From Spirogloea muscicola (taxonomy: Eukaryota): a stretch of 39,159 nt of DNA. The stretch's first letter is position 1, and each line of letters opens with the position of its first letter. Location of the stretch: NCBI GenBank assembly GCA_009602725.1, contig WELB01000023.1, positions 85,124 through 124,282 on the forward strand, read 5' to 3'. The translations under genes and the position numbers were made by a program. The notes under the pieces are model-generated. The model worked only from the letters and a program-made list of their open reading frames with translations. It was not told the DNA's origin and did no database searches. Positions 1 through 39,159 of this stretch are shown here, one piece after another.

Positions 1-197
1 GAAAGCTGGGCGAGCTCTAGTAGGTGGCAGAAGGGCTCCGTTCCTGGCATCTAGTATTCATGCATCGAGTAGTGACCTTTATGTTTTGACCCGTGGTTAT
101 TGAGCGGGTCAATCTGCTGTAGGTTATGTAGATTTTTAGATGTGCTTGCCTTTGTACCTGGCCATTTGGCCTACATTTCTTTCTAATACACGATCTC
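1..197 (+). mobile_element. CRE-like non-LTR retrotransposon 3' end (family E): ORF C-terminus plus 3' UTR
   Basis: Frame 2..103 reads KAGRAL...SSDLYVLTRGY*, the terminal motif shared by all copies. The UTR segment atgtgcttgcctttgtacctggcca recurs at ~31410 (+) and ~38170-38200 (-). Confidence 0.75.
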
Positions 198-249
198 TCC
201 GATGCCGGCCCAGCCGCCGGCTTTGTCATCGTGATGGTGATATACCAGA

Positions 250-377
250 GGTCGCCGGCATCCCCTGGTGCTTCTCTAACGCTTTTCTGTCTCTTGCGAG
301 TTTTCTGGTGTTCGCTGTGGTGACGCACTTCTCCGGCTGCAAGCAAGTCTGACTTGCAGCTGCTGATTAAGAAGTGA
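250..377 (+). mobile_element. Degenerate CRE-like ORF C-terminus
   Basis: Ends ...PAASKSDLQLLIKK*, resembling FPAASLSDLRLLTRTY* of other copies. Confidence 0.45.
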
Positions 378-386
378 GCTCTTCCA

Positions 387-491
387 GAGAGAGAAGGCGC
401 GCGGGGCGCATGAATTGAAAGGGAGGCCAATTCAAGCCAATACATTGTTCAGGCAGAGTCGAGTGCAGACTAAACAAGGCTACATTATACG
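387..491 (-). mobile_element. CRE-like family A 3' tip with (TC)n tail
   Basis: Identical by eye to 2417-2521 and near-identical to the reverse complement of 3055-3160, which follows an LSDLFVLTRGY* ORF end. Confidence 0.8.
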
Positions 492-544
492 CGAGAGAAG
501 AAACAGCTCTTCTGTGTAAGGCTGTAACAGGTCTTCAATGTCAG

Positions 545-918
545 GCCTCGGAGGCTGGACATGCAGCTGCGAATGCTGCTCGTGGTAGTGCGCGGCCAAG
601 TACGCGGACCACCCGGACGGGGACGAGTTCGTCCGACTGGCCGTCGGTGTGCACGGGGCTTTTGGGTCTTAGTGTATCGACCTGTTGGCCCGGCTTGCGC
701 GACGCGCAGTGTCCCGCAAGCGAGGCGAGAGGACTGAGCTGAACGCCGCTGGCTCACTAGCACGGTGTTCTGCATGCGCCTATCCATACCACTCCAGCGG
801 TCCATGGCCCACGCCTTGCATCTGCGTGCTGGCCGTGCTCTAGCTGCAGCCTCTGGCTTCCGTCAGGGGGATTGCTTTCCGGCTGCTAGTCTTTCTGATG
901 TGCGACTCCTCACTAGAG
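545..918 (+). mobile_element. Frameshifted CRE-like restriction-like endonuclease (RLE) domain fragment
   Basis: Pieces read AGHAAANAAR..KYADHPDGDEFVRLAVGVHGA..MRLSIPLQRSMAHALHLRAGRALAAASGFRQGDCFPAASLSDVRLLTR. The KY...F.P.A.d..GalG...RLS.sLQR layout is typical of the RLE C-terminus. Confidence 0.8.
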
Positions 919-1007
919 AGAAGGCGCGGGTCGCATGAAATTGAAAGGGAGGCCAATTCTAGCCTTACAAATGTCCTGTTAACTGGGTAATGAGCTGGCT
1001 AGGGGGG
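916..1007 (-). mobile_element. CRE-like family A' 3' tip
   Basis: Near-identical to the reverse complement of ~30915-31010. Ends ttggcctccc...atgcg..cgcgccttctctct. Confidence 0.75.
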
Positions 1008-1567
1008 ACACTCACTAGAGGTTACTAAGTGATTCTCCTACCAGGAAAGCTTTGGGAAAGCGCTTTCTGGCCCCTTCGGACCTTGTCAATACTTTCCGGG
1101 CTGGCTGTTCACAGCCCTTGGCCCCTTTGAGAGAGGCACTTTGAAACGTAAGCAATACACACAAGTGTTTCCAGAATGTCCTGGTTTGAGTTCGGACATA
1201 GAGCGTTTAGGAGACAACCCTCTCACAGGAGAACGCCAACGAACACACGCGCACATATCACAGCAGAGTGTTCCCCTGAGGCACCGCACACTCACTAGAG
1301 GTCACTAAGTGATTCTCCTACCAGGAAAGCTTTGGGAAAGCGCTTTCTGGCCCCTTCGGACCTTGTCAATACTTTCCGGGCTGGCTGTTCACAGCCCTTG
1401 GCCCCTTTGAGAGAGACACTTTGAAACGTAAGCAATACACACAAGTGTTTCCAGAATGTCCTGGTTTGAGTTCGGACATAGGGCGTTTAGGAGACAACTC
1501 TCTCACAGGAGAACGCCAACGAACACACGCGCACATATCACAGCAGAGTCTTCCCCTGAGGCACCGC
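1008..1567 (+). repeat. Tandem duplication, 2 x 280 bp
   Basis: Units 1008-1287 and 1288-1567 differ at about 5 positions. Each unit is a CRE family C 3' end (LTRGY*/LTRGH* plus UTR) fused to part of an LTR. Confidence 0.95.
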
Positions 1568-1790
1568 CCAAGGGCGGTGACTTACCGAGGGTCAGTTGCT
1601 GTCCCACATGGGGCGCAGCCATATACTCACAGAGAGCCGGCGAGACCCGCAGCGACGAGCTGCTGCGATGGGCTGGGCAGCAGGCAACAGCAGCAGAGCT
1701 GTGGCGGCGGCTGCGGCAGCAGGCAGCAGCAGGGCTGTGCCTCTCTTGGCGTCACGGATCTTCAAATTCAGTCTGGCCTCGGCCTACTAC
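1422..1790 (-). mobile_element. Solo-LTR-like sequence related to the gypsy LTRs at 23925, 28359 and 30496
   Basis: Shares gtcctggtt.ga.t.cggacatag...taggag and gctgtggcg.c.ggctg.gg.agcaggcagcagca blocks with 30496-30814. The left end TG corresponds to a CA LTR terminus on the minus strand. Confidence 0.55.
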
Positions 1791-1791
1791 T

Positions 1792-2250
1792 GAGAGGAAG
1801 GCGCGCGGCGCGCTTGAAGATGGAAGGGAGGCCAAACTCGAGCCTTACAAAAGTCCTGGTACCGGGGCAGTGTGCTGTCTAAGGGGGACACTAGTTCCAC
1901 GATTGAGCACAGTCATATCTGACAAGCTAAGCTGAGGAGCCAGACCACCGCCGCGGAAGCCATTGGCCTGGCCAAATGCACGCCCAGCACGCTGGTGTAT
2001 CGCGAATGCCTGGGAGCGCTGCTGACTCAATGATAGCCGCATTCTATAGCAAACCACGAGGGCTTGTGGGACGCTAGACTGCCCATAGCTACTTGCCCGA
2101 CCACGTCGGCGGGCATCGACATTCTGTGCCAGGTGATGGAGGAGGGAAGACCAATTTGTCCCTAAGCCGCGTATATGTCCATGGCCCATGGGGAGAAGTG
2201 GCTCGCTCCGGGGGTAGTAGTTATAATGCCTCTCCTTGCTTGTCTGCATG
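1792..2250 (-). mobile_element. 5'-truncated CRE-like element (family A' type)
   Basis: ORF 1845..2249 contains YRMRLSLSQQRSQAFAIHQRAGRAFGQANGFRGGGLAPQLSLSDMTVLNRG, followed by an A-type tip. Confidence 0.75.
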
Positions 2251-2264
2251 GTGTGTCGCCCAAT

Positions 2265-2345
2265 TATGATAGGATTTCTTTTTAGGCTGGCTTTGCCAGC
2301 CCCTCTTCTCTATGGGCGAAAGAAAGAGCACTTTCTTTCTTTGCT
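2265..2345 (+). mobile_element. CRE-like family B' 3' tip
   Basis: ggctggctttgccagcccctcttctctatgggcga...gcactttc matches 2941-2979 and 31870-31915. Confidence 0.7.
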
Positions 2346-2406
2346 TTGCCTCTTCTCTATGCCCGGCTTCAACGCCGGGTCAGGAAGAAGAAGGCTCGCC
2401 CATTCT

Positions 2407-2645
2407 GAGAGAGAGAGAGAGAGAAGGCGCGCGGGGCGCATGAATTGAAAGGGAGGCCAATTCAAGCCAATACATTGTTCAGGCAGAGTCGAGTGCAGAC
2501 TAAACAAGGCTACATTATACGGAGACCTAATCTAAGATACCTAAGATGACATTAGTACCCACGGGTGAGCACAAACAAATCTGACAAGCTAACTTGGGGA
2601 GCTGGAGCGCCGCCGCGAAAGCCGGAGGCCTGACTTAGAGCGCGC
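2407..2645 (-). mobile_element. 5'-truncated CRE-like family A copy with (TC)n tail
   Basis: RALSQASGFRGGAPAPQVSLSDLFVLTRGY* (stop at 2552), ~140-bp UTR, then a (TC) dinucleotide tail. Confidence 0.85.
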
Positions 2646-2673
2646 ATAGAGAAAGAGGGGCTGGCAAAGCCAG

Positions 2674-2979
2674 CCCGCCGGGTCGCTCGCCCAAGTCTTT
2701 CGCATGCGCCTGGCGGTATCGTTCCAACGTCCCTTGCCCACGCAGTCCACACGCGCGCAGGACGCGCTCTGGCCGCCGCCTCCGGGTATCAGCGGAGTGC
2801 CTCCTTCCCGGCATCGAGCTACCCTGACCTGATGTTGCTCACTCGCGGGTACTGAGCTTCCCTAGTGTGTTGTCGTGTTTGGTGGAGTAGTCCTTTTTCG
2901 GCACCTCTTTCTTTGGCTTTGGCCATTGTCCATTGTGTTTGGGCTGGCTTTGCCAGCCCCTCTTCTCTATGGGCGAGCC
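2674..2979 (+). mobile_element. 5'-truncated CRE-like family B' copy
   Basis: AGSLAQVFRMRLAVSFQR / AHAVHTRAGRALAAASGYQRSASFPASSYPDLMLLTRGY* (stop 2853-2855), then a UTR ending gggctggctttgccagcccc...gggcgagc. Confidence 0.85.
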
Positions 2980-3160
2980 AAGTTAGCTTGTCAGATTTGT
3001 TTGTGCTCACCCGTGGGTACTAATGTCATCTTAGGTACCTTAGATTAGGTCTCCGTATTACGTAGCATTGTTTAGTCTGCACTCGACTCTGCCTGAACAA
3101 TGTATTGGCTTGAATTGGCCTCCCTTTCAATTCATGCGCCCCGCGCGCCTTCTCTCTCTC
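2978..3160 (+). mobile_element. 5'-truncated CRE-like family A copy flanked by a 15-bp direct repeat
   Basis: LSDLFVLTRGY* (stop 3021-3023), UTR and (TC)n tail. tctctatgggcgagc occurs at 2964-2978 and 3157-3171. Confidence 0.85.
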
Positions 3161-3277
3161 TATGGGCGAGCACTTTCTTCTCTATGGGCGAGCACTTGCT
3201 TCTTTCTTTCACCTGCCACCCCTCCCCCGAGGGTCTGACGAGGGTCGCCTCCAAGGTCCCCCGGCGGGCCTGACACA

Positions 3278-3390
3278 GAAGAAGTGGCACTCCCAATGGG
3301 GGCAAGGGCTGCGAAAAGCCAGCGCAGACAAGGGAAAGTGCTCGCCCATAGAAGGGAGGGGCTGGGAAAGGCCAGCCCAAAAAGGAATAG
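3278..3390 (-). mobile_element. Two stacked CRE-like 3' tips (B' then C type)
   Basis: Reverse complement contains gggctggcctttcccagcccc...tatgggcgagcacttt and gctggcttttcgcagcccttgcccccattgggagtgcc. Confidence 0.7.
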
Positions 3391-3970: not shown

Positions 3971-4104
3971 NNNNNNNNNNNNNNNNNNNNNNNNNNNNNN
4001 NNNNNNNNNNNNNNNNNNNNNNNNNNNNNNNNNNNNNNNNNNNNNNNNNNNNNNNNNNNNNNNNNNNNNNNNNNNNNNNNNNNNNNNNNNNNNNNNNNNN
4101 NNNN
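3971..4104. other. Assembly gap (134 N)
   Basis: Run of N within very GC-rich sequence. It probably hides the first coding exon of the GH79 gene. Confidence 0.99.
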
Positions 4105-4176: not shown

Positions 4177-7100
4177 GTGCTGCTGGCGGTGGGCGGGCAG
4201 GAGGAGGTGGCGACGACGGCCGAGGACTTTGTGTGCGCCACGCTGGACTGGTGGCCGCCCCAGAAGTGCGACTACGGCCGCTGCGCCTGGGGCCTCGCCT
4301 CCCTCCTCAACCTGGTCCGCCCCCCCTCCATGGCTCAGCGGTTCAAGCGCCCAACACATGATTCGAGACCTCGCAGGTTCGACTCCTGCTGGATGCAGTG
4401 CCCAATTCCCATCACCTCACTTTGAAGACTGATGCACGTCTGCTTTGCCCAATTCGTCTCTTGCAGGACCTCCAGAACCCACAGCTCCAGGCGGCCATCG
4501 GAGGTGACGGCCCTCTGCTCCCCCAGCTCCGATGCTCATGGCCGCCACTCGCCTGACCCTGTGAAGCCTGCCGCAGCCGCCGTCCTCTTCAACCTTGCTG
4601 AACTGGTCACGTCGGCAATTGGGACGTTCTGCTGCAAGCCCACTACGCCAGCAGACTAGCAATTGCAGTTGTTCTCAGCAGCTTCGCATGCCACGCCTTC
4701 GATGGTGCAGGGCTCGCGCCGTTCGTCCTCCGGCTGGGAGGCTCGCTGCAGGACCACATCACGTATGAAGTTGGCCTGAAGGAGGGCGAGGAGTGCCCCC
4801 CGATCACGCCCAATGCGACTGACGCCCTCGGCTTCAGCGGTGGCTGTCTGCCCATGAGCCGCTGGGACGAGCTCAACGACCTGTGCTACAACCACGGGTA
4901 GGCCTCGCGCACTGCCGCTCAGTGCTTGGTATTCAACCGTGCCTTGTGAGCATGCGGCTATGGGACTGGCACAGCAAAGTGCTGCAGGGCTCTCAGGGCC
5001 GAGTGGCCGGTCCTCCATGCAGCGCAGCTGCGAGCTGGTGTTTGGCCTCAACGCGCTCCGTGGCCGTCACCAAGTGGGCCCCCGCACCTGGGTTGGCCCC
5101 TGGAACCCCAGCAACGCTCAGGCGCTCATCCACTACACTGCCGCCAAAGGCTATCACATCAAGGCCTGGGAATTGGGTACGCGATCATCCAAGTTATAAG
5201 TTGAAGCAAGCATCATCCCTGCTAGCTATACAGAACTGCAGTCACCGACCACATGGCAATTAGAGAAGTCACCAGGCATTTTCTGCATGCGTTGGTGCGT
5301 CTGTGAGCCTTGCAGCTTCCACCAAGTGCAGTCTATTAGCCAATATTGACAGTGGCACTGGTGTCATGAGGAGCTGCAGGGAACGAGGTCGCTGGGGGAA
5401 GCGGCATAGCAGCGAGGTTGCGGCCCGAGCAATATGCTGCAGATGTAGAGAAGCTGAGGGACACTGTGGCTGCCGAGTACTCCATGCCCGTGACCGTCCA
5501 GCTGCCGCCCCCCCTGGTCGTCGCGGCTGACACCTTCTTCAGTGCCGAGTTCTACCGCCAGTTCCTCAGAGCTGCCGGGCCGGGCGTTGTCAATGCTGTC
5601 TCCCACCATATCTACAATCTGGGCTCCGGTGCGTGCTATGTGACCGACTTTCTCCTATCCTCCTCCAAGCCACAGGCCAACGTCCACAGTTGTCCTTCCC
5701 TTGCTATTCCTGATATCTCTTCCATTGCTGAGATGGGCAGATGAGCTGATCAGAAGCCAGCACCTTCTGGCATACGCCTGATCCGCTCCACTCTTGCAGG
5801 TTTGGAGCCAACATTGGTGGAGAGAATACTGAACCCCAGGTACTTGGACAAGGCTGGCGCACTCCTGCAGCTGGCCCAGGGGACGGTGTCCAAGTACGGC
5901 AATGGCGCAACCATTTGGGTGGGCGAGGCGGGCGGGGCCTTCAACAGCGGCCAGCACGGCGTCACGGACGCCTTTGTGTCTGCATTTTGGTGCGGGTCCC
6001 CTAGGACTTGATAATTCAAGATCTCTTGCATATTTACACGAGTCTCAGACGATTGTAGAGTCAAGGATGTCATTCTTTGCTACACTTGATTGATATGTTT
6101 TCACAGAACAGTGCCATAAGGTGTGCTCTCTGATTACTGAGTGAACGACTAGCGCGTGATCAGGTACTTGGATCAGATGGCAATGGCTGCGATTGCAGGC
6201 CATAGCATGTATTGCAGGCAATCTCTTGTTGGAGGGAATTACGGCCTTCTCAATCTGACAAACTTTGTGCCCAATCCAGACTACTATGGGTGCGTCACTG
6301 TAAATTGAATCGCGCCTGGCTCTGGCGCTAGCAGCTGCACCACTAAAGTCGGACAGCACAATCAATCAAGCAATATGATGCTCTTGTGTGCTGAATGCTT
6401 CTACGTGGTGCGCTTGGCCTTGTGCTTCTCAGATGCCGGGTTCTTGGCAAGGTCGTATGAGCCTGAAGCATGAGCTTGGAAATTGATATTGAAGGCACAA
6501 TGCTATGTGTAGTGCAGGGCTCTCCTTTGGAGGAAACTGATGGGTGCTCGAGTACTTCGAGTAGTGAGCCCTGCTGATACTCCTATGTTGCGAGCCTATG
6601 CCCACTGCCTGAGGGGATCCCGGGTACGTTTCCTCATGTGATGGCGCTGCCTTAGAATGCAGCAGCAGGCTTCTGCCTACTTGTACTGAGCAGGGAGCCC
6701 TTTTAGTCTCACCAGATACCAATCATTTAGCCAGCTTAAGTTTCTTGACCTTACTTGTTGGAACTATGTGCTATATGTATGAACCTGCTGTCGATCGAAT
6801 GAATGTGTCTTTCCAGGGTACAACAAAAGAACGTGCTTGAGGCCCTTGCTTGAGTCTATTGCATTAACAAGACTGCACCAGGGAAGCAATGAACACTCTC
6901 AGCAGACGTCTCTTGACAGTGGCCTTTTGTCGCCATCACAGGGTGGCATCACGCTCCTGCTGCTGAATCTGAGCAACTCCACCAGCTTCTATGTCAAGCC
7001 CGACATTGTGGACATTGCGTGGAAGAGGAAGCGCAGGCTCGGAGCCTTGCTTGGGCGGAGGGAGGAGTACCACCTGCAGCCGGTAGGCGGAGACCTGTCT

Positions 7101-9442: not shown

Positions 9443-10312
9443 NNNNNNNNNNNNNNNNNNNNNNNNNNNNNNNNNNNNNNNNNNNNNNNNNNNNNNNNNN
9501 NNNNNNNNNNNNNNNNNNNNNNNNNNNNNNNNNNNNNNNNNNNNNNNNNNNNNNNNNNNNNNNNNNNNNNNNNNNNNNNNNNNNNNNNNNNNNNNNNNNN
9601 NNNNNNNNNNNNNNNNNNNNNNNNNNNNNNNNNNNNNNNNNNNNNNNNNNNNNNNNNNNNNNNNNNNNNNNNNNNNNNNNNNNNNNNNNNNNNNNNNNNN
9701 NNNNNNNNNNNNNNNNNNNNNNNNNNNNNNNNNNNNNNNNNNNNNNNNNNNNNNNNNNNNNNNNNNNNNNNNNNNNNNNNNNNNNNNNNNNNNNNNNNNN
9801 NNNNNNNNNNNNNNNNNNNNNNNNNNNNNNNNNNNNNNNNNNNNNNNNNNNNNNNNNNNNNNNNNNNNNNNNNNNNNNNNNNNNNNNNNNNNNNNNNNNN
9901 NNNNNNNNNNNNNNNNNNNNNNNNNNNNNNNNNNNNNNNNNNNNNNNNNNNNNNNNNNNNNNNNNNNNNNNNNNNNNNNNNNNNNNNNNNNNNNNNNNNN
10001 NNNNNNNNNNNNNNNNNNNNNNNNNNNNNNNNNNNNNNNNNNNNNNNNNNNNNNNNNNNNNNNNNNNNNNNNNNNNNNNNNNNNNNNNNNNNNNNNNNNN
10101 NNNNNNNNNNNNNNNNNNNNNNNNNNNNNNNNNNNNNNNNNNNNNNNNNNNNNNNNNNNNNNNNNNNNNNNNNNNNNNNNNNNNNNNNNNNNNNNNNNNN
10201 NNNNNNNNNNNNNNNNNNNNNNNNNNNNNNNNNNNNNNNNNNNNNNNNNNNNNNNNNNNNNNNNNNNNNNNNNNNNNNNNNNNNNNNNNNNNNNNNNNNN
10301 NNNNNNNNNNNN
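9443..10312. other. Assembly gap (870 N), preceded by a (GGC)n tract
   Basis: Run of N with (GCG)n at ~9420-9442. Confidence 0.99.
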
Positions 10313-10610
10313 GGCCAGCTTTCTGGTGCAAGGCATTAGCCTGAGCACGCTGCAAACAGGCCGAAACACGTCGTCGCAAGAAAGACAGATATGCAGCTGG
10401 CAAGCCCAACTCAACCGGAAACACATCTGCACGACGTGTGTAGCCTAGATTGGCAATGTTTTGGAGGAGGGTGTGGAAACGAGGACCCAGACAACCAAAG
10501 ACGTCGATTGCCGCTGGCAGGAGCTGATCGCATTGAGGGTAGTCGGAGTAATGCTGCAGCTTTCTTTGTTCTGCAACGCCCACTGCGTGACCAGCGATGT
10601 GTGTGGATGC
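10313..10610 (-). mobile_element. CRE-like RLE domain fragment (family E type)
   Basis: AGHAVGVAEQRKLQHYSDYPQCDQLLPAAIDVFGCLGP...LRRRVSACLQRAQANALHQKAG, running into the gap. Confidence 0.8.
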
Positions 10611-10671
10611 TGAGCCAGGCGGCCAGTGGGCAGCAACAGCCAGGTGGCCAAGAGAGTGGCTCCAAAAGCGG

Positions 10672-10907
10672 GAAAGATGTGGCTCTCCCAAAGAGAGAAG
10701 GTGTGCGGGGCGCATGAAATGAAAGAGAGGCCAATTCAAAAGGGGAGCAGGGGCTGTGAACAGCCAGCCCGAAAGATGACAAGGTCCGAAGGGGCCAAAT
10801 GCGCTGTCTCAGAGCTGGGTAGGATGATCACTTAGTAACCACGAGTGAGGAGCCGCAAATCTGAAAGACTAGCAGCAGGAAAGCAATCCCCCTGACGAAA
10901 GCCAAAG
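10672..10907 (-). mobile_element. CRE-like family C 3' end with a family A tip nested inside it
   Basis: FRQGDCFPAASLSDLRLLTRGY* (stop 10832-10834). The C tip is interrupted at ~10692-10740 by ttgaattggcctc...ccttctctct, then resumes ttgggagagcc. Confidence 0.8.
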
Positions 10908-11249
10908 GCTAAGAGAGTCGAAAGGGCCCCACAACACTGGCCGCCGCAACGTTGTCAGGCTGCGTGCCGCTGCCACCAGCCATGCGCCTCCAGCAAAAGC
11001 TCGCACGTACTGCCTTGGGCCGACAAGGCACCGTTGCTTGACATTCCTGGCACGCGTCACATTTAAATATTTGGCCGGATCATAGCTGAATGGCAACAGG
11101 GACACTGCCCTTCCTTTTCTTGTTCCTCACTATTTTCCCTCCTATCTTCCCTTATCCCTTGAAAGGCTCTCTCTCAATGACATCAAAGGCGACCTCTTCC
11201 GCTCATACCCTTAGTCGCCAAAGCACACGCACATAACGTGGGCGGGGTG

Positions 11250-12452
11250 CTCTGACCCTTGGGCGTGGATCTGCTTCAGGCACGCCGCCAACAAGCAGGC
11301 CGTTACCTACTGATAATGTAACACAAGAACGATGGCGTTCTCTCTCGCCTCCACTCAATCAGCTCTAGGGGGGCGTCCGAGTGCTCAATGCACATTCTTA
11401 ACAAGTCCCTTGGACTCCCCAATGACTGCAGTCCACCACCATGTCCGCCTTCCCCCCCTTTGCTTTGCCGGCTTCCGACAATGGGAGTGTGGGCATAAAT
11501 CTAAAATGAGATTGCGTTGGCTGCTCACAACTTAGGTGTGTTGAGGGCGGTGAGCGTAACGCCTCCCACAACTTACTGAGAGACGCAATGTGTGGTTTAC
11601 TTCGGAACTCTGGTACATCCGGCTATGGAGGTGCTGGGCATCATGCCCGTCATCCGGAAAGCGGCAGGCTTACATGAGTCGTCTGGATGCGATTCCCACT
11701 CTCTCAGAACTGCGGGCCTCGCCTCCTGCTCAAAGTCATGTTAAGTGATGCTTTCCAATCGGGACACCCAGGCCAACTGTGTGTGCATAGCTGGTCGACA
11801 ACCTATGCGGAAATGGAGTGGCACTACAAGGACCACCCCTTGGGGAGACCAATCTAATTCGTGCACTGTGGACATTCACAGCGGCTTTAGTATGATGTGG
11901 TCTTCCCTCCTCCATCGCCTGGCCGAGCTGGTAGATGCACGCCATCGTGGTCAGGCAGGTAGCTCGGGGCATACCAGCATCCTGCAAGCATTGGTCGCCC
12001 AGAGAGAATGCCGCTCTCACTCAGGCTCTAGCCATACATCAGTATGCTGGGCACGCTCTATGTCAGGCCACTGGCTTGCATCATGGTGCTCCGGCTCCCC
12101 AGATTAGCTGTTGGATGTATAAGCGTGTACTCGTTAGTAGAATAGTCCCTCTTCGATTGTGCTTCTCATTCTTCTAACTCAGCCCCTCTCTATTTTCTCC
12201 GTTCGTACCATAACAACAATGTACCGGTTTGGCTTGGACTCCTGTACTTTGTGCACCACGTACTGTCTCTTAGTATTGAAGGCCCCTTCCCGCCAGCTAG
12301 TACCAAATGCATAACTCGGGCGGCCATGCTTTATAAGACATCCTTTGAGCACTTTGAGCACTCCTTGTTTGCATTAGACACTGCCTGAACAATGTATTGC
12401 CTTGAATTGGCCTCCCTTTCATTTTCTGCGCTTCGCACGCCTGCTCTCTCTT
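11250..12452 (+). mobile_element. Old, decayed CRE-like element (family A type), zinc knuckle to 3' tip
   Basis: Broken frames give LPPLCFAGFRQWECG, LRCVEGGERNASHNLLRDAMCGLL, PRLLL, WSSLLHRLAELVDARHRG and QALAIHQYAGHAL, collinear with the 36.5-37.8 kb copy. An A-type tip lies at ~12365-12452. Confidence 0.7.
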
Positions 12453-13607
12453 TAAGCACAGTCATCCTGGGCCCCTAGCAGAAGGCTTTGCTTTGTGTGG
12501 CGTTTCCCTGAATAGTGTGTTACAAAGATTTGACGACCTCCTCATTTATGCTCACCGCTTCACCTTTTCTAAGACAAAACTGCATCTGACTCATTCAAGG
12601 AACTGAGAGTAAATTTGATATTCTTTATATACACTTCATCCCCCCGCCGTTTTTCCTGACAGATTCAACTTTCTGTGTGATACAAACCTTGACAACCACA
12701 CTTGATTGCTCTGCATTTGAAAGTTTTCAACACATTCTTGTATACTATTGTCCAAAGTAAACAAGTAGCCAGTGATTGGTGAAGAGCTATATGGTGATGA
12801 CATTTGCCTCAGCCAGCTACCTAATTTTTTCCAATGAAAACTTATGTAGATAGCATGTTGTGTTCGTTTCCCAAGTAATTAGTATAAGTTGTTGCCTTTC
12901 TTCCGAGTTATGTATTTGATAGTAATTAATGGTGACATGCTTCAAAAAGTCCTTCGTTTAACAATTAACGCTTGTGAGATATTACTCATATGAATTGATA
13001 TAAAACCACAAGACAAGTTGACTTTTGGTAGAGTTGGTGGACTGACAGTATTCGTTTGCAGTGGTTGACTACGAGACATGGTCCATGCAAAGAGCGTATA
13101 CATGTATGTAGCTTGTCATAGCTCAGTGATGCACAATAAGTGATAAAACTTGTGTAAGTCATCATATTTCACCCAAATCACAACAGTGTTCACCAAGTTC
13201 ACTCCGTATTTCGGGGTTATATGTGTAAGTAGTAAATATCAGCAAGAACCTGAATTCATAAAGCCACGTGAAAACGACCTATAGAGGACATAAATGAATG
13301 CACTACGTTTGCATCGACACAGCCATTCACTTTAAATTGTGTCCAGTACAGATATGCACAATCACTAGGTTTACATTGTTTCTCAAGCATAACGGCACGC
13401 AGACCACAAAGGAAGTTCATAAAGCTGACTCATATTCCAAAGTAAAGTCTAAGCAGATGTTAGCCTCAAATGAAGTAGGCAATCAAGTGCACCATCCTGA
13501 TGCTTTGGTCAAACTTGCAAATCTGAAAGTGGTCAGTGAGCCAGATTCTCCTAGGGGCAGCTGCATGTCTGCACTTCTGAGAAGGAGCAAAGATAATCTG
13601 GCCTGAT

Positions 13608-19745: not shown

Positions 19746-19779
19746 CTTTGTAGTATTCCTAGACGCCCTATGTACTGTT

Positions 19780-26189: not shown

Positions 26190-26272
26190 TTTGGCCCCTT
26201 CGAACCTTCGTCAATTGTTTTGGGCTGGCTTTTCACAGCCCTTGCCCCCATTGGGAGAGCCACTTTCTTTCA
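26190..26272 (+). mobile_element. CRE-like family C 3' tip
   Basis: tggccccttcgaaccttcgtcaatt...gggctggcttttcacagcccttgcccccattgggagagccactttc. Confidence 0.75.
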
Positions 26273-26699: not shown

Positions 26700-28358
26700 T
26701 TTTGCGCCTCTCGGCCCTTTCAGACCATGAACATTCCTTGGGCTGGCCTCTCACGTCCTATCCTACCCAACCTCTGAGTAAGCGCTTTTCGCCTTACTAG
26801 AGGTCACTGAGCGTCCCCTGGCTGATGTCTTAGTCCTAGTCCTTCTCACTCCGGCTCCTTCAGACCTTGTCCATTCCTTTGGGCTGGCCTTTCCCAGCCA
26901 CCAGTCAATCTGGCCGCGCTTTCTCTTTTAGCCCCTTCGGTCCTTGTCAATCCTTTTTGGAATATAGAAAAACGCTTCCGTAGAAGGCGATGGCTGTGAG
27001 TGGCCCAGGAAAAAGAATGAGCGAAGTCCGAAGGGGCCAGAAAAGCGCTGAAGCAGAATTTTGTGTAATCGAAACAAACAAAGGCCAAATGGCCAAGTGG
27101 TCAAGGAAGCACACAGCGACCTAACTCCCACACTCCCACACTCCACACACCCTCCCCTGGAGGGAGGTTGGCACGCAGATGCACCATACGAGAGCAAGCG
27201 CGGCCAGATTGACTGGTGGCTGGGAGAGGCCAGCCCAAAAGGAATGGACAAGGACAGAAGAAGCCTGGGTGCGAAGTACTAAGACAGCAGCAAGGGGACT
27301 CTCAGTAACCTCTAGTCAGAAGATGCAAGTCTGAATAGCTAGACGGCGGAAAGACGTCGCCCTGACGGTAGCCGGAGGCCGCAGCCAAAGCGCGGCCGGC
27401 GCGCAGGTGAACCGCGAATGCGAGGGACCGCTGCAAAGAGATAGATAGCCAAGCGCATCGAGAGAATGGGGGCAAGGGCTGCGAAAAGCCAGCCCAAAAA
27501 GAATTCACAAAGGTTCAGAGGGGCCTTAGAGCGGTGAGCAGCTACAAAGAAAGAAAGAAAGGGCTCGCCCATTGAGGATAGGGGCTGGACAAGCCAGCCC
27601 AAAAAAGAATAAACAAGAACGAGAAGGGGGCCAGAGGAAGCCAGAGGAAGCGCTAAGAAACCAAAGTACACAAAGAAAGAAAGCAGCTACAACTCACTCA
27701 GTAACCCCTGCTAAGCAGCCGCAAATCAGAGAGGCTAGGGTCCTGGAAGTGGGTCCCAGCTACAAAGGGGCCTGAGGATGCTAAGGTAAAACAGGGGAAG
27801 AATGGATCACTCAGTACGTACGAGTGAGGAGCCTCAGATCCGACAGACTAGCTGCCGGGAAGCTATCACCCTGACGAAAGCCAGAGCCCGCAGCGAGAGC
27901 ACGGCCAGCTCGCAGATGCAGAGCGTGGGCCATGGACCGCTGCAGGGATACAGAGAGGCGCATCCGATATACCTGAGCCCACGAGCCCGCGGCGTTGAAG
28001 TCGGCTGGCTCGCCGCGTCTGCGGGACACAGCCCGCCGCGCAAGCCTAGCCTAGCCAATAGGTCAAGCCACTGGGACCCAAGAGCCCCGTGCACGTCCAC
28101 CGCCAAGGGGACGAACTCGTCGGCAGGTGGGTGGTCGGAGTGCTTGGCGCATCCGGTAGACCTGAGCGAGGGACCCGGCCACGTTAAAGCCAGGCTGCTC
28201 ACCCTGTTGCCCGTGGCGGCGGGCCGCTGCGAGCCGGGCAAGGCGGTGAAGCAGGTCCAGCAGCCATTTGGTGCCAAAGGGTCGTGGAAGTCGACAGCCC
28301 GTGGGACAAATTCGTCGCCCACCGGGTGGTCCGAGTATTTCCGTTCCTTTGCGCCAGC
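26700..28358. mobile_element. Mosaic cluster of about 9 CRE-like 3' fragments
   Basis: D end (+) 26795-26927, F tip (-) ~26965-27060, D end (-) 27190-27460 (SSYSDLHLLTRGY*), C tip (-) ~27460-27535, B end (-) 27545-27760 (SDLRLLSRGY*), and RLE fragments (-) 27811-28145 and ~28245-28358. Confidence 0.8.
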
Positions 28359-30140
28359 CATAAGGAGCGGGCGGACACCCGGCTAAGGGAGCTTGGATCG
28401 GAGCGGTGAAGCCCGGAGAGAGGGGCAGTACTGCGGCTGCCTGCTGCCGCAGCCCGTCGCCGGAGCTCGCTGCCGGCTCGCTAGGAGGCGTCCGTGGCTG
28501 GCCCTTGGTGGGCTAGCTGCTGACTGGTGCCCAGGAGGTGGAGTTGCTGCCTGTCGGCTGCACCTCGGGGCGAAGTCTCCCGCTGCGCTAACACGCGAGT
28601 ACTTCATCATGTAGGGTCTGCTCCTAAACCCCTATGTCCGGAACCAACCAGGACTTGACCTCCTAGTTGCCTGTGTATAGGAGCAGGTGTGTTAGAGGTA
28701 TTCGTGCATCTTGCAGGCCTTGTGTTCAGGGGTTACGGTTTTGGGCTTTCTACAGGCTGCTAATGCAAAGATCCACCAGATGCTCTGGCCTGACTTTCTT
28801 GTTTGAGTGGAAAAGATCTTGCCAGAGCGGGTACGTGGTGCTGCAGACGGTCGGCAATCTCGATATTGCTCCCCGGCGCCACGACCACCGGCATTGGCTT
28901 CCCCATTACCCATCTACACACATACCACCTGCTGTTGGCGAGATTGCCTATCTTGGAATTGGGAGTTGGAACAAGCAGCTGCTGGGCAGGTGAAAGTGCA
29001 AGCAAATGTGGGTTCGTGCTCCGGTTCTGGACCCTCCCTGCAGTTTCTTGTCTGCCTTACTTTTTGAAGGTACGGCTCAGCGCGCTGTCCTGCTTGCTCG
29101 CTTGCTCGTGCACCAGTATTGGGGAGACTAGCTATCTAGTATGGAGGCGCGGTATGCTGACCAGTGGAACTTGAATTAATCACTCAGTGATTCTCCTGGA
29201 CGGCATGGAGTCGGAAACCTCCAGTGCGCATCCCAGTCCTTCTGGGCCGGCGGATGAACTGGCTCTGTTGGAGAAGTTGGTCAAAGGGATGGTACAGCTC
29301 AGTACGGCCGCGTTTGGAGCTGTCCCAAGCGGAGGAGCTTCCGGCCAAGAGGGCCTGTTGCCTCAGGACATGCGCAGAGTCGCAGGCCTCGGGGAGCAAC
29401 TGGAGGCGGCAAAGGCTGTTGTGGACCCTGCCTGCCACACCCTGCTGGAAGGGTTGTTCGGTATGATGCAAGCCAATTTCGCCCGACTTGATACCAGCGA
29501 GCGACGGCTTAGGAGGGCCAGGGCTCAGGCGCATCAGTTGCACCAACGCCTGGACCGGGTGGACACCCTTCACGGGTCCCGCAGGCCTGCACCCCAGAAG
29601 TTTTCTGGCCAGATGGAGCGTGTGGGCCTCCAAGCCTAGCTGGACGAGATTACGGAGTGGTGCGGGCTGTGTTGCACGGATGAGGGGGCAAGAGTGCATG
29701 TTGCCTCTACGTACCTCACTGGCGAGCCTCTCCGGTGGTGGAACACCGTGAAGAAAACCTCCACTCCCAAGATGTACAACACGTGGGAGTTTTTCTCGAC
29801 CTCTTTGACCAATGTGTATAGTGAGGTCCATTTGGAGCTTGAAGCTTGTGACGAGCTTGTCCCTTCTTATCAAGCGGTGGCTCACAAGAAGGCGAGGCTC
29901 AATGAGGGCCAGCACTCCCTTCCCACCAGGGACTCGAGGTCTGAGGTGTCGGAGCCGCGCGGTTGCTTTCGCTGCGGCGACTTGAACCATTGTATCCGAG
30001 ACTGCAAGGCTCCCGGGCCTTCTACCTCTCGGCCAGAACGTCCCTTCAAGAGGGACAAGGGCGATGACAAGGGCAAGCGTGAGTACCCTGTCCAAGCCTT
30101 AATGTCTGAGCAAACAGCAAGCCGTCTGTCAGCTATTTGA
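28359..30140 (+). mobile_element. Truncated Ty3/gypsy-type LTR retrotransposon (5' LTR, leader, gag)
   Basis: LTR ~28359-28687 is homologous to 23925-24258. The LTR/PBS junction carries a small deletion. A gag relic follows, and no pol is seen. Confidence 0.85.
29205..30140 (+). pseudogene. gag: gag pseudogene (retrotransposon capsid plus CCHC zinc knuckle)
   Basis: PQKFSG...QA*LDEITEW...(frameshift) VHVASTYLTGEPLRWWNTV...TWEFF...CFRCGDLNHCIRDC. There is an in-frame TAG at 29637-29639 where Trp is expected. Confidence 0.85.
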
Positions 30141-30480
30141 CCTTGTTGGCCAGCCTGCCCACAAATGGACGTACCTGTCGTACGCTCATTTCCTGCTCTC
30201 TTGCAAGCTCTGGAGGCCGGTGGACCTTCACTTGTATGAGTGTCCCATGCTGACTTGCACATAGCAGCGAATGTGTACCTACTTTTTCTCGTCGGCGGCC
30301 TGAAAACATGGTGTTCGTCATTCTGCCTTGCAGGCGCTGCGTGATCCAATGAACTCCGCGTGGTTGTCGCTGCTGTGCTCGTTCACTGCGGGACACCAGC
30401 TCCTTCTGAATGGCGTCGATGAGATTCAGGAGAGGCCAAGCGCGACTGCTGATCTATGTCGATTACACCCCCTCAACCCC

Positions 30481-30814
30481 GCCTTTGATACCAAATGTTA
30501 CCGGCTCCTATACACAGGCCATTAGGAGGTCTGGTCCTGGTTGACTCCGGACATAGGGGGTCTAGGAGCAAACTCCCCACCCGATGAAGCTGCATGAACG
30601 AAGCGGAAGACTTTGCCCTGTGGCGCTGCCATCAGGCTGCATCTCCACCTCGTGGGCGCTTGTAGCAACTAGCCCACCAAGTGCTAGCCATGGACGCCTC
30701 GCAGCGAGCCGGCAGCAAGCTGTGGCGACAGGCTGTGGAAGCAGGCAGCAGCAATACTGCACCTCTCTCTGGGCTTCACCGATCCAAGCTCTCTCAGCCG
30801 GGTCACCCGGTACG
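30481..30814 (-). mobile_element. LTR (30814-30496) with tRNA-iMet-type primer binding site
   Basis: Minus strand reads ...GGTAACA-TT-TGGTATCAAAGGC. The body is the reverse complement of the LTRs at 28359 and 23925. Confidence 0.85.
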
Positions 30815-30822
30815 ATAATTAC

Positions 30823-31915
30823 TTAGTAACCTCTAGTTAGGAGCGGCAGGGCAGAAAGACTAGCCACCAAAAAGCAACCCCCTTGACAAAGAGCTTGGAA
30901 GAGCTGTTTCCTTTGGCCCCCCTTAGCCAGCTCATTACCCAGTTAACAGGACATTTGTAAGGCTAGAATTGGCCTCCCATTCAATTTCATGCGCACCGCG
31001 CGCCTTCTCGCTTTGGATGTTTATTTCTTTCCTTGGGCTGGCCGATCACAGCCATCGCCCTCTTCTGGAGCAGTCTTCTATTTGGATAAGCTTACGGTTA
31101 CTTACTACTTCGGCTATCCGCAAGACTAGCCTGTGGGCTTCGTTTGTGCTCACTTGTGGGTGCTCAAGGCCCCCTTTAGCAGGCTTTTGGCGATGTTGAC
31201 ATTGGCCCCGCTAGCATAAGTACATGCTTTGAGCAGACCCATGCTTTGTTACCTTAGCCCCTCTCAGATTTCTTTCTTTCTTCTTCTTCTTCTTACAGAC
31301 AGAGTATTGGCCTGCTTCAGCCTCCCTCTCATCAGTTAAGCGACCTCTACGTGCTGACTTGTGGTAACTGAGCGGGTCAGTTTAGCAGCAGGTGATGTAC
31401 AACAGTCAATGTGCCTGCCTTTGTACTTGGCCACACAGGCCCTCCATCACTTGATACGCACTCCATCCTCTCACTTCTTGCGCACCTGGCGCTTTCTCTC
31501 TGCGCACTGGCCTTCGCCTGATCAGTGTTTAGACTTGGCCTCCCTTGTACTTGCATGCGCAGCGCGCGCCTCCCCGCCTCTGGATTGTTTCTTCTTGTGG
31601 CTTCTAGCTTTAATCTCATGCGCACCGCGCGCCTTCTCTCTTGTGGAAAATCTCCGTTTGGTGTAGCACCAATCTTTGCCAAAATCAGCTCTACTGGAAG
31701 CGTCTTCGCTTCGTTGCAATGTTTCCCAATTGCATCCAACACTGTGTTCGCTAGAGGTTACTGAGCGTCCTCTGGCTGATGTCTTCGTCCTAGTCCAAAG
31801 GCATGGACTGTAGTGTAGTTCTTTTTCGGCACCTCTTTCTTTGGCTTGGGATATTGTCCATTCTTTTTGGGCTGGCTTTGCCAGCCACTCTTCTCTGTGG
31901 GCGAGCACTTCTTCT
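30823..31915. mobile_element. Mosaic cluster of CRE-like 3' ends
   Basis: ORF end (-) 30823-30890, A' tip 30915-31010, F tip ~31030-31080, E end 31335-31500, two more A-like tips to 31640, and a D/B' chimeric end 31750-31915. Confidence 0.75.
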
Positions 31916-35100: not shown

Positions 35101-35376
35101 AACTTCGGGTCCCTGACGGCTCGATGGCTAGGTTCAGTGCTAATAACAGCTGTAGGAGTCAGGAAGGATCACTATGATCTTCTCTGGCTGGCCGTGTTGA
35201 TAAGGACATGTATGCGACTCCTACCCATCTGCGTCCTCTTCCTATTGCCACCTGGAGACGGGAGTGTTGAGCTAGCACCTGTATTTTCCCGTCTTCCTGA
35301 GGATGACCAAGAGGGCGACTCGCAACCTGCAGCATTCTCAAAGCTTGAGCTAGGGCATCCTGGCCACGATTTGTAA
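32171..35376 (+). CDS. Folate/biopterin transporter (BT1 family, MFS), ~574 aa
   Basis: Exons 32171-32232, 32772-33204, 33380-33450, 33581-33785, 34012-34284, 34521-34712, 34888-35376 join in frame (1725 nt). Motifs YYWKDVQQVEP, LPWSVKPIYGLLSDTLPIGGYKRWPY, DVVVDAAIA, NLRIGIPD and LAARLCPPGIEGTLFAFLMSLSNFG are typical of BT1. Exon 1 is less certain. Confidence 0.93.
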
Positions 35377-36317
35377 TTGATATTTACAGTACTCAAGACC
35401 TCCCTACCTCAGTCTCTTCAGATTGCTGGTCCCGAGCTGCAGCTAATACCAGCCTGCGTCTGTCTGCGAACACCAAAGAGAGAGAACAAATGCACCTTAC
35501 TTACAGGGCTGGTGAGATTGGATCTGTGCGGTTCCTGAGACGAAGTAACACATGTGCCACTTTACACTGCTGAAGTAGATTTGTCCCCATGGCATACTTC
35601 TGCTGTCGACCAAGAAGAGGATAGAACTCCTTGACGCCTGAATTGGTGAAATGCTAACAAGAAGGACACTTCAGAATCAGCACCCCGCACCATTTAGTGA
35701 CTTGATCATGGCTTCTGCAGGAGCTTAATTTAGCAGTGGATATTCTCTGCAAAGTGGAAGCGTTTACTAGTGGACAGGAAGGAACATGCAGGTCAAAGTT
35801 CATGGGCAGATGGGAAGGGCAAGGGAAAAAAGGATGTGCACCTGGATTGTGCTCTGAAAAGTGAAGCTCAGCCGCACCTTTCAATGAGCCTCATTGGTAG
35901 TAATAGTGGCCAGCCTCGATAGGTCGTTACAATAGGGGGAGGGGAAGCTTGACGAAGATGCAGCACAAAGGTGAGGAATCAAACTGCAGGAGGGGCTTTG
36001 ACAGACCCGCTAGAATTAGGACAGGCCTGCCAGCTCTTAGCTCGAAATGAATGGCCGGGAGCAGTGACATAATGGCTCGTCTCAACGAATCTGGTGATCT
36101 GGTGGAACAGCCTAGCAGGCTAAGATTAGTCTAACTCTGCCTAGTGAGCCGTGGGTGCGCTCCCTGTGAAGTAGTAGTGCTCCAGCACATTGGGCTTCTC
36201 CTGATGCTGAGGTGGCCTGCGCTGCTCCTTGCTTGCGCCCTAGCTATGGCTGCTTCCCACCCTGAGTGACCTGTGACCACGGCTATGCAAGAGACTACAG
36301 CGAATGGGAGCTTCAGA

Positions 36318-36466
36318 AAAGAAAGTGGCTCTCCCAAAAGGCGACAAGGGCTGTGAACAGCCAGCCCGACAACATCCGAAGGAGCCAAAAGCGCTTTCTC
36401 TAAAGCTTCTGGCCCCTTCGAACTTTTGTCAATTCTTTTTGGGCTGGCTTTTCACAGCCCTTGCCC
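36318..36466. mobile_element. Two family C tips in opposite orientation
   Basis: 36318-36400 (-) and ~36405-36466 (+) both carry gggctggct.ttcacagccc. Confidence 0.7.
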
Positions 36467-37820
36467 TAAGAAAGACAAGCACAGAAAGAGACAAAGCAGC
36501 TACGAATCACTCAGTAACCCCTGCTAAGCAGTCGCAGGTCAGAGATGCTAGGCTCCTGGAAGTGGGTCCCCTGGCCAGAGCCAGAGGCAGCAGCGAGGGC
36601 TCTGCCGGCACGCAGGTGCAGCGCACGGGCCATAGACCTCTGCAGCGAGACGCCCAGGCGCATTCGGTATACCTGCGCGAGCGACCAGGCTGCAGGAAAG
36701 TCCACCGGCTCCCCATGGAAGCGGCGGGTGATGGCGTGGCGGGCGAGCTGGTTGAGCAGCTCGAGCCACCGAGCACCCAACGCCCCATGGGTGTCGATAG
36801 CCAGCGGGAAGAAATCGTCTTCCAGCGGATGGTCAGCATACTTGAGATTTTTTGCCCGAGCGGCGCAGGCAACCGCATACTCAGCCTTGGTGGCACACTG
36901 GGCTGGGTGGGAGCGGTCGAATGCGTCGGTAGTCAAGGAGAAGACGTGGCCCACGGGCTTATGGGGTGGCCACAAGGTCTACACGACGTGCCTGGAGACC
37001 GTCGGCCCTTTCCTGGAGCGGCATGACGCCGGGGTGCTCCGCGGCCACCAAGAAGCCAGCCTCCACCAGGATGCCATGCATCGCATCCCGGAGGCGGTCA
37101 TGGGCCACTGTCCGCTCTCCGCCGTGCGAACAGCGAAGAACGTGAGCAGCCAGCTCCCCCGGCTCGGCCCCGCGCTCACCACACTCGCATTGACGCACGC
37201 CCTGGAGGCATGGCGGCGGCAGGCCAAGGAGCCGGTGGACGGCACTTCGGAATACCTCGTCCGGGAGGGCGAGGGCGTCGTTGAGTGGGAGGGCCTGGAG
37301 CCACGCCGCTGCCCCCGGGGAAGAGGCCGATTGAAGTCTCGCGCGCCCGCGCAGGTCGGCCTCGGGGAGCTGTCGCACGGCGGTGGTGTAGGCGGCCTTG
37401 TCGACCACGGCCGCGAAGCGCGCTTGGACGCGCATGTCAGCGGTGTGCGTGAGATGCGCAAAGGAGACCGCCTGGCCTGCCAGGTCCGGGTGCGCCGCGA
37501 GCAGCTCCTGGTGGGCGGAGCGGAGCGACACCTGGAACGGCAGCGCGCCCATGTCGACCTCCATCACCGCCTGCTCCAGTGCACACCGGCCGTGGACCAT
37601 GAAGCGCTGGGCCACGGAGGCGGCAGTCTGCGCCCAGCTGCCGAGGTATGCAGCCCGACAAGAACGGGCCGAGAAGAAGAGGCCAAGACCGCCGTGGCTG
37701 AGGGGTACCGCCGCCTGGTGGATAGCGGCTGGCGACTGGAGGAAGCCCTGGTGGCGGACCAGGGCCGCCAAGCTGGCCACCATGCCTGCGTCCAACTCCG
37801 CGTACGCCGCCAACGCCCCT
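36467..37820 (-). mobile_element. CRE-like non-LTR retrotransposon (family B), 3' ~1.3 kb: post-RT region, CCHC knuckle, RLE; disabled
   Basis: QAAVPLSHGGLGL, AAYLGSW, ARLQSASSPGAAAWLQALP, CECG..HVLRCSHGGERTVAHDRLRD, RRVDL..*..RLLLD (stop plus small deletion), AKNLKYADHP..FFPLAIDTHGALG..RLGVSLQR..SDLRLLSRGY*. Confidence 0.9.
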
Positions 37821-38468
37821 GGGCGTTGTAAGCGGACTTTGACGCAGGCATGGTGGCGAGCTTGGCGGCCCTGGTCCGCCACCAGGGCTTCCTCCAGTCG
37901 CCAGTTGCTATCCACCAGGCGGCGGTACCCCTCAGCCACGGTGGTCTCGGCCTGCGCCCGCTCGCTCGGTCTTGTCGGGCTGCATACCTCGGCAGCTGGG
38001 CGCAGACTGCCGCCTCCGTGGCCCAGCGCTTCATCATGGTCCACGGCCGCGTACGCCGCCAACGCCCCTGGGCGTTGTACGCGGAGCTTGACGCAGAGGC
38101 ATGGTGGCGAGCTTGGCGGCCCTGGCCCGCCACCAGGAAAATGCGTGTATATTAAGAGATGGGGAGGCCATGTGTGGCCAAGTACAAAGGCAAGCACATT
38201 GGACAAAAAGGGAAGCCAGGAAGGGCTCGCCCATTGAGGATAGGGGCTGGAAAAGGCCAGCCCAAAAAAGAAAATGAACAAAGTACGAGAAGGAAATCTC
38301 GTGTATTTGAAACAAACAGGGGGCCAGAGGAAGCGCTAAGAAAAACAAAGCACACCAGGGCTTCCTCCAGTCGCCAGCCGCTATCGCCTGGTCCCCTTCT
38401 TGTACTCTGCTCATTCTTTTTTGGGCTGGCTGCTCCAGCCCATATCCTCAATGGGCGAGCCCTTTCTT
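37821..38468. mobile_element. Rearranged CRE-like scraps (fold-back arms, E-type UTR, B tips in both orientations)
   Basis: 37821-38048 and 38070-38135 (+) mirror 37590-37820 (-). E UTR (-) ~38140-38200, B tip (-) ~38220-38350, B tip (+) ~38390-38468. Confidence 0.75.
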
Positions 38469-39159
38469 CTGCTGGGGGTCCCCATCGGCGCGCCGTCCTT
38501 CGTGGAGGGGCAGCTGCGAGCCCGCCTGGCGGAGCACCTTCAGCCTGCGGCCCGGCTTCCCGAGCTGGACGACATGCAACTATCGCTGGCCATATTGACC
38601 AGGGCCATTGGGCAGCGGCCCCAGTACCTGACGCGGGCCACTCCGCCGTCCCCTGGGGCGTTGGCAGCGTATGCAGATTTCGATGCAAGCATGGTGGCGA
38701 GCTTGGCGGCCCTGGTCCGCCACCAGGGCTTCCTCCAGTCGCCAGCAGCTATCCACCAGGCGGCGCTACCCCTCAGCCACGGTGGTCTCGGCCTGCGCCC
38801 GCTCGCTCGTTCTTGCCGGGCGGCATACCTCGGCAGCTGGGCGCAGACTGCCGCCTCCGTGGCCCAGCGCTTCTTGGTCCACGGCCGGCGGGCACTGGAG
38901 CAGGCGGTGGCGGAGGTCGACATGGGCCCGCTGCCGTTCCAGGTGTCGCTTCGCTCCGCCCACCAGGAGCTGCTCGCGGCGCACCCGGACCTGGCCGGCC
39001 AGGCGGTATCCTTTGCGCACCTCGCGCACACCGCCGACTTGCGCGTCCAAGCGCGCATCGCGGCAGTGGTCGACAAGGCCGCCTACACCACCGCCGTGCT
39101 CCAGCTCCCCGAGGCCGACTTGCGCGGGCGCGCGAGACTCCACTCGGCCTCTTCTTTTT
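38469..39159 (+). mobile_element. CRE-like ORF fragment: end of RT domain (LGVPIG) and thumb/linker, open to window end
   Basis: Stop-free frame from 38469: LLGVPIGAPSFVEGQLRARL...PQYLTRATPP...QAALPLSHGGLGLRPLARSCRAAYLGSW...ARLHSASS. It is absent from the ORF track because no stop falls inside the window. Confidence 0.88.

Follow-up and report, generated by a model that had tools for sequence, protein, structure and literature searches.

The spacers between host genes on contig WELB01000023.1 of Spirogloea muscicola (assembly GCA_009602725.1, positions 85,124 to 124,282 of the forward strand; 39,159 nucleotides, hereafter the window) carry clusters of short, nested and partly inverted 3' ends of CRE-like non-LTR (long terminal repeat) retrotransposons. 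This feature is real, and the mechanism behind it is probably an ordinary one: we consider it fairly probable that short 3' ends from several CRE-like families were stacked up in these clusters by separate target-primed insertions favouring T/C-rich sites. All statistics refer to this one window with about 35 insertion events, which belongs to a gapped eukaryotic scaffold and holds 38,155 called bases (runs of N at 3971–4104 and 9443–10312).

Nested insertions and target-site duplications

The pieces end in 3' tips of two classes (A and B) and were assigned to families (A1–A4, F1–F4 and F6; the labels are our own and based on window-derived references). Exact flanking direct repeats of 7–15 bp were found at 10 of 34 pieces, compared with 1.8 expected from flank swapping. 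Because the boundaries had been set by hand, which can bias the count, the test was repeated with self-BLAST boundaries only; repeats of at least 10 bp then remained at 5/33 pieces versus 0.54 expected, one of the five being owed to a 280-bp tandem duplication. Known CRE elements make target-site duplications as well (PMC3636483).

Several of these duplications lie inside one another. In a three-level nest at 2.3–3.2 kb, an F2 end entered a B tip (11 bp) and was in turn hit twice, by an A1 end in the F2 tip (15 bp) and by an antisense B tip in the F2 open reading frame (ORF; 9 bp); this antisense tip is split by another A1 end. Similarly, an F3 copy at 27.2–28.4 kb is split by an F4 copy (7 bp), which is itself split by an F1 copy (11 bp). 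In other copies the F3 ORF is uninterrupted at the 27460–28146 site, with contigs from three runs joining 27444 to 28147. A 6-bp match initially taken as a duplication around 27190–27460 was dropped, as the copy continues at 28147. Besides that, the piece at 20479–20605 combines an inverted ORF end and a sense tip within a single 9-bp repeat, and the piece at 30806–31080 has the same shape without a repeat. Twin priming is described as leaving an inverted 5' part and a sense 3' part in one duplication (PMC2912911).

The inner duplications argue for serial target-primed insertion rather than end-to-end template jumping or misassembly, and the mosaics are mostly serial insertions. The initial annotation had offered two alternatives, namely that the elements use each other's 3' ends as landing pads or that one reverse transcriptase (RT) concatenates the ends of several families. 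The first is supported in a weak form, in that duplications, split tips and co-orientation document serial insertions into sister 3' untranslated regions (UTRs) and tips. Such landing is not exclusive: of the insertions flanked by duplications, at least two hit non-CRE DNA and three hit sister ORFs. The individual pieces are listed below.

386–496 (-): A-class 3' end, then a B-like end motif; duplication ambiguous
555–1146 (+): family F4 ORF end, 3' UTR and B-class tip, interrupted at 919–1010 (BLAST references, hidden Markov model (HMM))
917–1007 (-): A-class 3' end antisense within the F4 ORF end; 10-bp duplication 909–918, 1011–1020
1790–2275 (-): family A2 ORF end, UTR and A-class tip (BLAST references, HMM)
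2361–3174 (+): family F2 3' end within a B tip, host of two further insertions; 11-bp duplication 2351–2361, 3176–3186
2382–2676 (-): B tip antisense within the F2 ORF; 9-bp duplication 2373–2381, 2676–2684
2414–2640 (-): co-oriented A1 piece splitting the B tip 2382–2676 (BLAST references)
2980–3160 (+): A1 3' end within the F2 tip; 15-bp duplication 2964–2978, 3157–3171
3278–3390 (-): two head-to-tail B tips; single-copy contigs bridge the junction near 3330
10313–10910 (-): F4 3' end whose B tip contains a 48-bp A tip (10692–10739; nhmmer, BLAST, HMM)
within 10313–10910 (-): ORF piece of another family behind the F4 3' end, running into the gap (BLAST, HMM)
11400–12454 (+): isolated, decayed copy of ~1 kb with CCHC remnant and A tip (BLAST, HMM)
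19400–20395 (+): decayed ORF piece, then an F6 tip, then a 560-bp F1 3' end (BLAST references)
20479–20605 (+): 5'-inverted insertion, minus-strand ORF end and UTR start (20479–20550) plus plus-strand tip; 9-bp duplication 20470–20478, 20606–20614
23170–23760 (-): two A-class ends flanking a plus-strand 56-bp B tip (23400–23455; 8-bp duplication)
26184–26270 (+): 85-bp F4 end in non-CRE DNA; 10-bp duplication 26174–26183, 26269–26278
26719–27190 (both strands): F4 UTR containing an F3 end (+), with an F6-like end (-) behind it (BLAST references; junctions by eye)
27190–28360 (-): F3 copy split by the F4 copy 27460–28146; 7-bp duplication around F4
27550–27756 (-): F1 copy splitting the UTR of the F4 copy; 11-bp duplication
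30806–31080 (+): second 5'-inverted piece, no duplication found; contig 30194–30945 in runs X2 and X4
30917–31010: A2 end within the UTR of the preceding piece; 6-bp duplication
31115–31915 (+): series of ORF ends and tips in one orientation (A3, A4, F3 piece, F2-like; nhmmer, BLAST)
36316–36466 (no single strand): head-to-head pair of F4-type tips, one of them cut (nhmmer, BLAST)
36463–37828 (-): longest copy, F1, with thumb/linker, CCHC knuckle and restriction-like endonuclease (RLE); frame break near 36960, no 3' tip
37811–38470 (no single strand): fold-back patchwork made up of short ORF pieces plus two F1 tips; no duplication detected
38460–39159 (+): piece from the LGVPIG motif on, 92% identical to the long copy, leaving the window

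Repeat inventory and protein class

Iterated nhmmer searches recovered 12 A-class and 24 B-class tips in the window (36 in total, 35 at E < 1e-3), and 20 composition-matched shuffles of the window gave no match. The protein HMM for the ORF end yielded 24 rows and reached the terminus in 14, two of them weak (E 0.04 and 0.4); together with about six termini read by eye, ~20 are present. At least eight 3'-UTR types could be distinguished by BLAST against the window-derived references. The hand-set piece lengths have a median of 175 bp and do not exceed 400 bp in 28/35 cases. These counts bear out the initial annotation, which had reported about 20 ORF termini, roughly 35 tips and at least five to six families, mostly as pieces of 40–400 bp. 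Self-BLAST returned 142 repeat pairs, located in the seven clusters which that annotation had drawn (1–3.4, 10.3–10.9, 19.4–20.6, 23.1–23.7, 26.2–28.4, 30.8–31.9 and 36.3–39.2 kb), all of which are correctly placed; an isolated ~1 kb copy at 11.4–12.45 kb comes in addition. Distant-family ORF ends, missed by the ORF-end HMM, possibly follow directly behind tips at 36130–36320 (-), 31640–31765 (+) and 27050–27190 (-).

The families are also abundant elsewhere. In run X1, 38,408 contigs align to 19.9 kb of the window at ≥95% identity and 4,342 align to 1.25 kb at ≥99%, where summed contig depth is not to be equated with copy number. The short-read contigs come from four runs of one sample, which is possibly the source of the assembly itself.

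Among 18 B tips, RNAalifold found a nearly invariant 5-bp hairpin, a weak second helix and no two-sided change. This hairpin is common to all B families although their UTRs differ (e.g. 26219–26266). It is likely to represent the RNA signal for priming, but shows no covariation. Nine A tips gave four pairs, again without covariation. A pseudoknot was considered for the tips, which the RNAalifold results did not support, and Rfam returned no ribozyme or snRNA (small nuclear RNA) match in the window.

The longest copy (36463–37828, minus strand) shows the motif order LP..GGLG, AWL.ALP, CCHC knuckle and endonuclease, and reads C-x1-C-x12-H-x3-C-x8-AHD-x19-E-x17-RVD; a C-terminal CCHC knuckle is thus followed by motifs of the RHD...E...RxD type, as in the R2 (RLE) group. 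This string is close to the restriction-enzyme-like endonuclease (REL) pattern given for SLACS/CRE and MoTeR (PMC12857005), from which it deviates by a longer C-to-H spacing, an A in place of the R of RHD, and a last acidic residue at the frame break. The predicted structure (mean pLDDT, the predicted local distance difference test, 74) was compared with 48,161 chains; the top two matches were R2 proteins with Z 7.3 and 7.2 (root-mean-square deviation 5.5 and 6.0 over 219 and 233 aligned residues) and the next match reached Z 5.3, values under 8 serving as a lead only. Foldseek also ranked R2 first, with E above 1. On motif layout, with the predicted fold as a lead, the protein is an RLE-type (R2-group) non-LTR element with a CRE-like layout, which agrees with the earlier reading of this DNA. 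No named CRE element came up in three protein searches, and we therefore call it CRE-like rather than a member of the clade; the Atlas scores were below 0.9.

Of the traits of CRE elements, target-site duplications are present at the 10/34 pieces described above, confirmed in part with self-BLAST boundaries. For a spliced leader (SL) RNA target, Rfam was searched at E ≤ 1 and brought up neither an snRNA nor an SL family, a search that an undescribed SL RNA would escape; neither a telomere-like dimer nor a tandem array of this kind occurs in the window. The tails are T/C-rich and not poly(A) as in trypanosomatid CRE. Pfam gave nothing in the four CRE pieces scanned, and a PDB sequence search gave no match.

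The closest protein is P0001, a eukprot gene model with 66% identity, whose relatives include a Closterium RT; both matches point to a green alga, probably a streptophyte. Its RVT_1 match is weak (E 2.4e-4, below cut-off) and strong in other relatives. The window copies cover only the region from LGVPIG on and no full-length copy was seen; a C2H2-like motif ahead of the RT in P0001 and P0007 is not present in the window. P0001 is a predicted protein of 1499 amino acids, a spliced model from another locus, stitched from several CRE pieces that are read partly in sense, partly in antisense and partly in UTR frames, and carrying three ORF-end pieces in series. It is likely a false gene over a similar stack.

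Insertion-site preference and alternative explanations

Both the tails and the starts of the target sites are rich in pyrimidines. The sense strand of the UTRs is 65% pyrimidine and carries 0.109 six-pyrimidine runs per base, versus 0.004 on the antisense strand and 0.02–0.03 in other spacer DNA (about 27 times and 3–5 times lower, respectively). Of 10 duplication sites, eight have a C directly ahead of the duplication, a count which the drawing of the duplication edge can inflate, and the first three bases are pyrimidines in eight, seven and ten. In a strict, hand-curated set of 13 events, seven fell into a UTR or tip, three into an ORF, two into non-CRE DNA, and one was left unassigned. All seven UTR/tip nests are co-oriented with their host (p 0.008), in agreement with the pyrimidine-rich sense strand, and ORF nests in 1/3.

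The explanation that we consider fairly probable is based on a loose nuclease preference combined with tail pairing. The endonuclease would nick a loosely defined site, with C ahead of the duplication and pyrimidines behind, and the U/C-rich RNA tail would pair with the nicked purine-rich strand. Reverse transcription would end after some 50–500 nt, and cleavage of the second strand 6–15 bp away would create the duplication, with occasional second priming leading to 5' inversions. Each insertion would then supply a new pyrimidine patch, a feedback promoting co-oriented landing in earlier UTRs and tips, while selection against gene insertions would restrict the stacks to spacers. Such a preference predicts co-oriented UTR nests, mixed orientation in ORFs and insertions into unique DNA, all of which are seen.

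Several results weigh against this account. The initial annotation had proposed to test the sequences flanking the tails for enrichment in sister-family DNA, and the answer is mixed, less clear than the finer signals of co-orientation and adjacency to B tips. In an automated call, CRE-derived 30-nt flanks occurred at 12/32 full tips, below the static spacer density of 44%, and a null of sequential insertion gives 28% (P 0.14 at 11 kb of usable DNA), so that no excess appears. A subjective count by hand arrives at about 21/35; the mask of the automated call misses the orphan halves of split tips. The null reached at least 55% CRE flanks in 0/5,000 runs at 11 kb, in 0.6% at 8 kb and in 11% at 5 kb, and the hand count is therefore in excess only if at least 8 kb of spacer are usable. 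Furthermore, 24/34 pieces show no exact duplication of at least 7 bp (some are old, some are hosts), and the junctions at 2414, 2640, 2676, 2979 and 37.8–38.5 kb are unbridged among the contigs listed. Finally, plain pyrimidine bias may not fully explain the adjacency of A tails and B tips, as the B-tip end motif lies within 8 nt of the A-class tail in 4/12 cases (one ambiguous), compared with 0.09–0.84 expected under five nulls and 1.69 under the most lenient one (P 0.08).

This adjacency speaks for an evolved sister targeting: the conserved B-tip DNA would itself be recognised by the endonuclease or the zinc fingers, and each family would use the tips of the others as a specific safe harbour. 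In addition, the B-class element 2361–3174 entered the same tip patch, the top Logan contig joints connect tip ends to sister-tip interiors at several times single-copy depth (joints listed without a denominator), and most RLE elements are target-specific (PMC4640811). However, the positions at which the tip is cut are scattered across about 10 nt instead of falling on a single base, two of the four cases belong to one nest, 8/12 A tails lie elsewhere, and duplication-flanked insertions also occur in ORFs and non-CRE DNA. We regard it as unlikely. A doubtful proposal in the same direction is a reciprocal cross-family nesting, in which CRE-like families would have swapped SL-RNA or telomere targets for each other's conserved 3' tip, with the priming hairpin as nuclease target and twin priming in an RLE element.

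A passive pile-up, i.e. near-random insertion that leaves stacks only because spacers are the sole tolerated sites, would fit the location of all 10,232 CRE-derived bases (of 38,155 called) outside the hand-drawn gene spans, the LTR fragments in the same spacers, the automated flank count, and the hand count, which is not significant at about 5 kb usable. It predicts no orientation bias, though, in conflict with the co-oriented UTR/tip nests, and the LTR fragments at 23.9–25.2 and 28.4–30.8 kb contain no tip, which makes it quite improbable.

Very improbable, in our view, is template jumping as the general cause, where one RT would join the 3' ends of several RNAs in a single event. Such jumps are known for R2 (PMC2912911), and head-to-tail junctions without duplications are found at 27190, 31586 and 38460, next to the ORF patchwork at 37.8–38.5 kb. 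But jumping cannot produce a duplication around an inner piece with host halves on both sides, antisense nests carry duplications too, and no multi-family cassette with a single outer and no inner duplication was found in the window. The concatenation put forward initially is therefore not supported where duplications surround an inner piece and survives only for junctions without them, chiefly 37.8–38.5 kb. The segment 37811–38470, where one short ORF stretch stands in both orientations beside the 5' end of the long copy, is a candidate for template switching or misassembly.

An origin as assembly chimeras, formed where short reads had to be joined over a very abundant repeat, has an almost negligible probability: the scaffold is gapped, the repeats have the abundance given above and contig depth is zero at 2200–2241 and low at 2326–2409 (the contig holes at 2200–2241 and 37831 carry no evidential weight), but chimeras would not produce duplications, single-copy contigs span junctions near 3330, 23400, 23760–23930, 30806 and 30895, and P0001 shows ORF-end pieces in a row at another locus.

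Genomic context, known relatives and significance

The clusters coincide with the spacers between host genes, which contain introns and include a GH79 glycosidase and a BT1 transporter (Pfam). Two neighbouring small genes at approximately 18300–18750 and 20930–21495, read by eye, have similar cysteine-bearing N-termini and are probably paralogues. A multi-exon gene at about 13500–17400 (-) encodes a repetitive hydrophilic protein with only a weak apolipoprotein-like match in Pfam, which we take to resemble late embryogenesis abundant (LEA) proteins. Within the GH79 gene region, a tRNA-like stretch of 74 nt (4325–4398), possibly an organelle-derived tRNA fragment, matched Plastid-ycf2 of Rfam on the minus strand (60.9 bits, below cut-off), and ARAGORN found no tRNA there.

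The spacers also house 5' ends of LTR retrotransposons, at 23920–25171 (+), 28358–30140 (+), 30480–30803 (-) and about 1146–1760. The family has an LTR of about 340 bp, followed by what is presumably a primer-binding-like site, and a gag with zinc knuckle (Pfam, below cut-off). Inverted repeats at 28.36–30.8 kb were considered as a DIRS or terminal-inverted-repeat element, but the LTR end, the primer-binding-like site and the gag/zinc-knuckle matches point to two opposed LTR-element pieces. The 280-bp tandem duplication, which may be real or an assembly echo, lies at 1008–1567 (98% identity) and spans a CRE 3' end and an LTR piece.

Like the CRE-clade elements SLACS, CRE1/2, CZAR, MoTeR, FoTeR and Cnl1, the elements of the window have a CCHC knuckle followed by an RLE, probably behind an RT, make target-site duplications and occur in many 5'-truncated copies. 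They differ in that no SL-RNA or telomere target was found, tails consist of pyrimidines instead of poly(A), and many families coexist in small nests within ordinary gene spacers instead of subtelomeric arrays. For Cnl1, insertions from 25 bp to full length with duplications of 1–12 bp, forming arrays, are described (10.1101/2021.08.11.455996). MoTeR relics resemble the pieces in that a CRE-related element is represented by very short 3' fragments at interstitial positions, but they lack duplications and retain telomere remnants (PMC8381367), whereas the pieces here have duplications and no telomere repeats. The 5' inversion at 20479–20605 resembles those of L1 twin priming (PMC2912911), but it occurs in an RLE-type element and the whole unit measures only about 130 bp. 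In Alu, a sense-strand self-insertion hotspot beside a tail-like tract was attributed to tail pairing and a loose nuclease preference (PMC2836564). This Alu-in-Alu nesting by the L1 machinery shares the sense-strand self-insertion at a tail-like tract, but here an RLE-type long interspersed nuclear element (LINE), a T/C-rich tract and nesting across families are involved.

Zepp is an L1-type element. In Coccomyxa, this green-algal LINE forms clusters of nested copies (PMC3446292), unlike the many small multi-family nests between genes seen here, with one probably centromeric cluster of 1.5–42 kb per chromosome. Transposon-targeting LINEs are a further precedent (PMC4640811). The initial annotation had called such a self-nesting community unusual. 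Given Alu-in-Alu, Zepp and Cnl1, nesting as such has precedents, and what is new is the combination: ultra-short CRE-like elements of several families, not tied to a specific site, which nest across families and show 5' inversion. Our literature search brought up no paper on such nests of CRE-like elements from streptophyte algae; it did not extend to Repbase entries, subscription papers or supplements, and the family may already be deposited.

RLE retrotransposons underlie the R2-type gene-insertion tools, and for most of them a single multicopy target is the rule. A CRE-like family that is abundant, apparently young and relaxed in its targeting, that makes duplications of 6–15 bp, ends in a conserved 3' tip of 45 nt and has left short insertions by the thousands, would reveal the target rules of an RLE enzyme, its truncation and twin priming from a single genome. 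Should the tip be a true target, the system would show how site specificity can shift away from a host gene towards sister elements. Otherwise, it provides an algal counterpart of Alu-in-Alu nesting and a warning for gene annotation, as stacks of this kind are annotated as genes (P0001).

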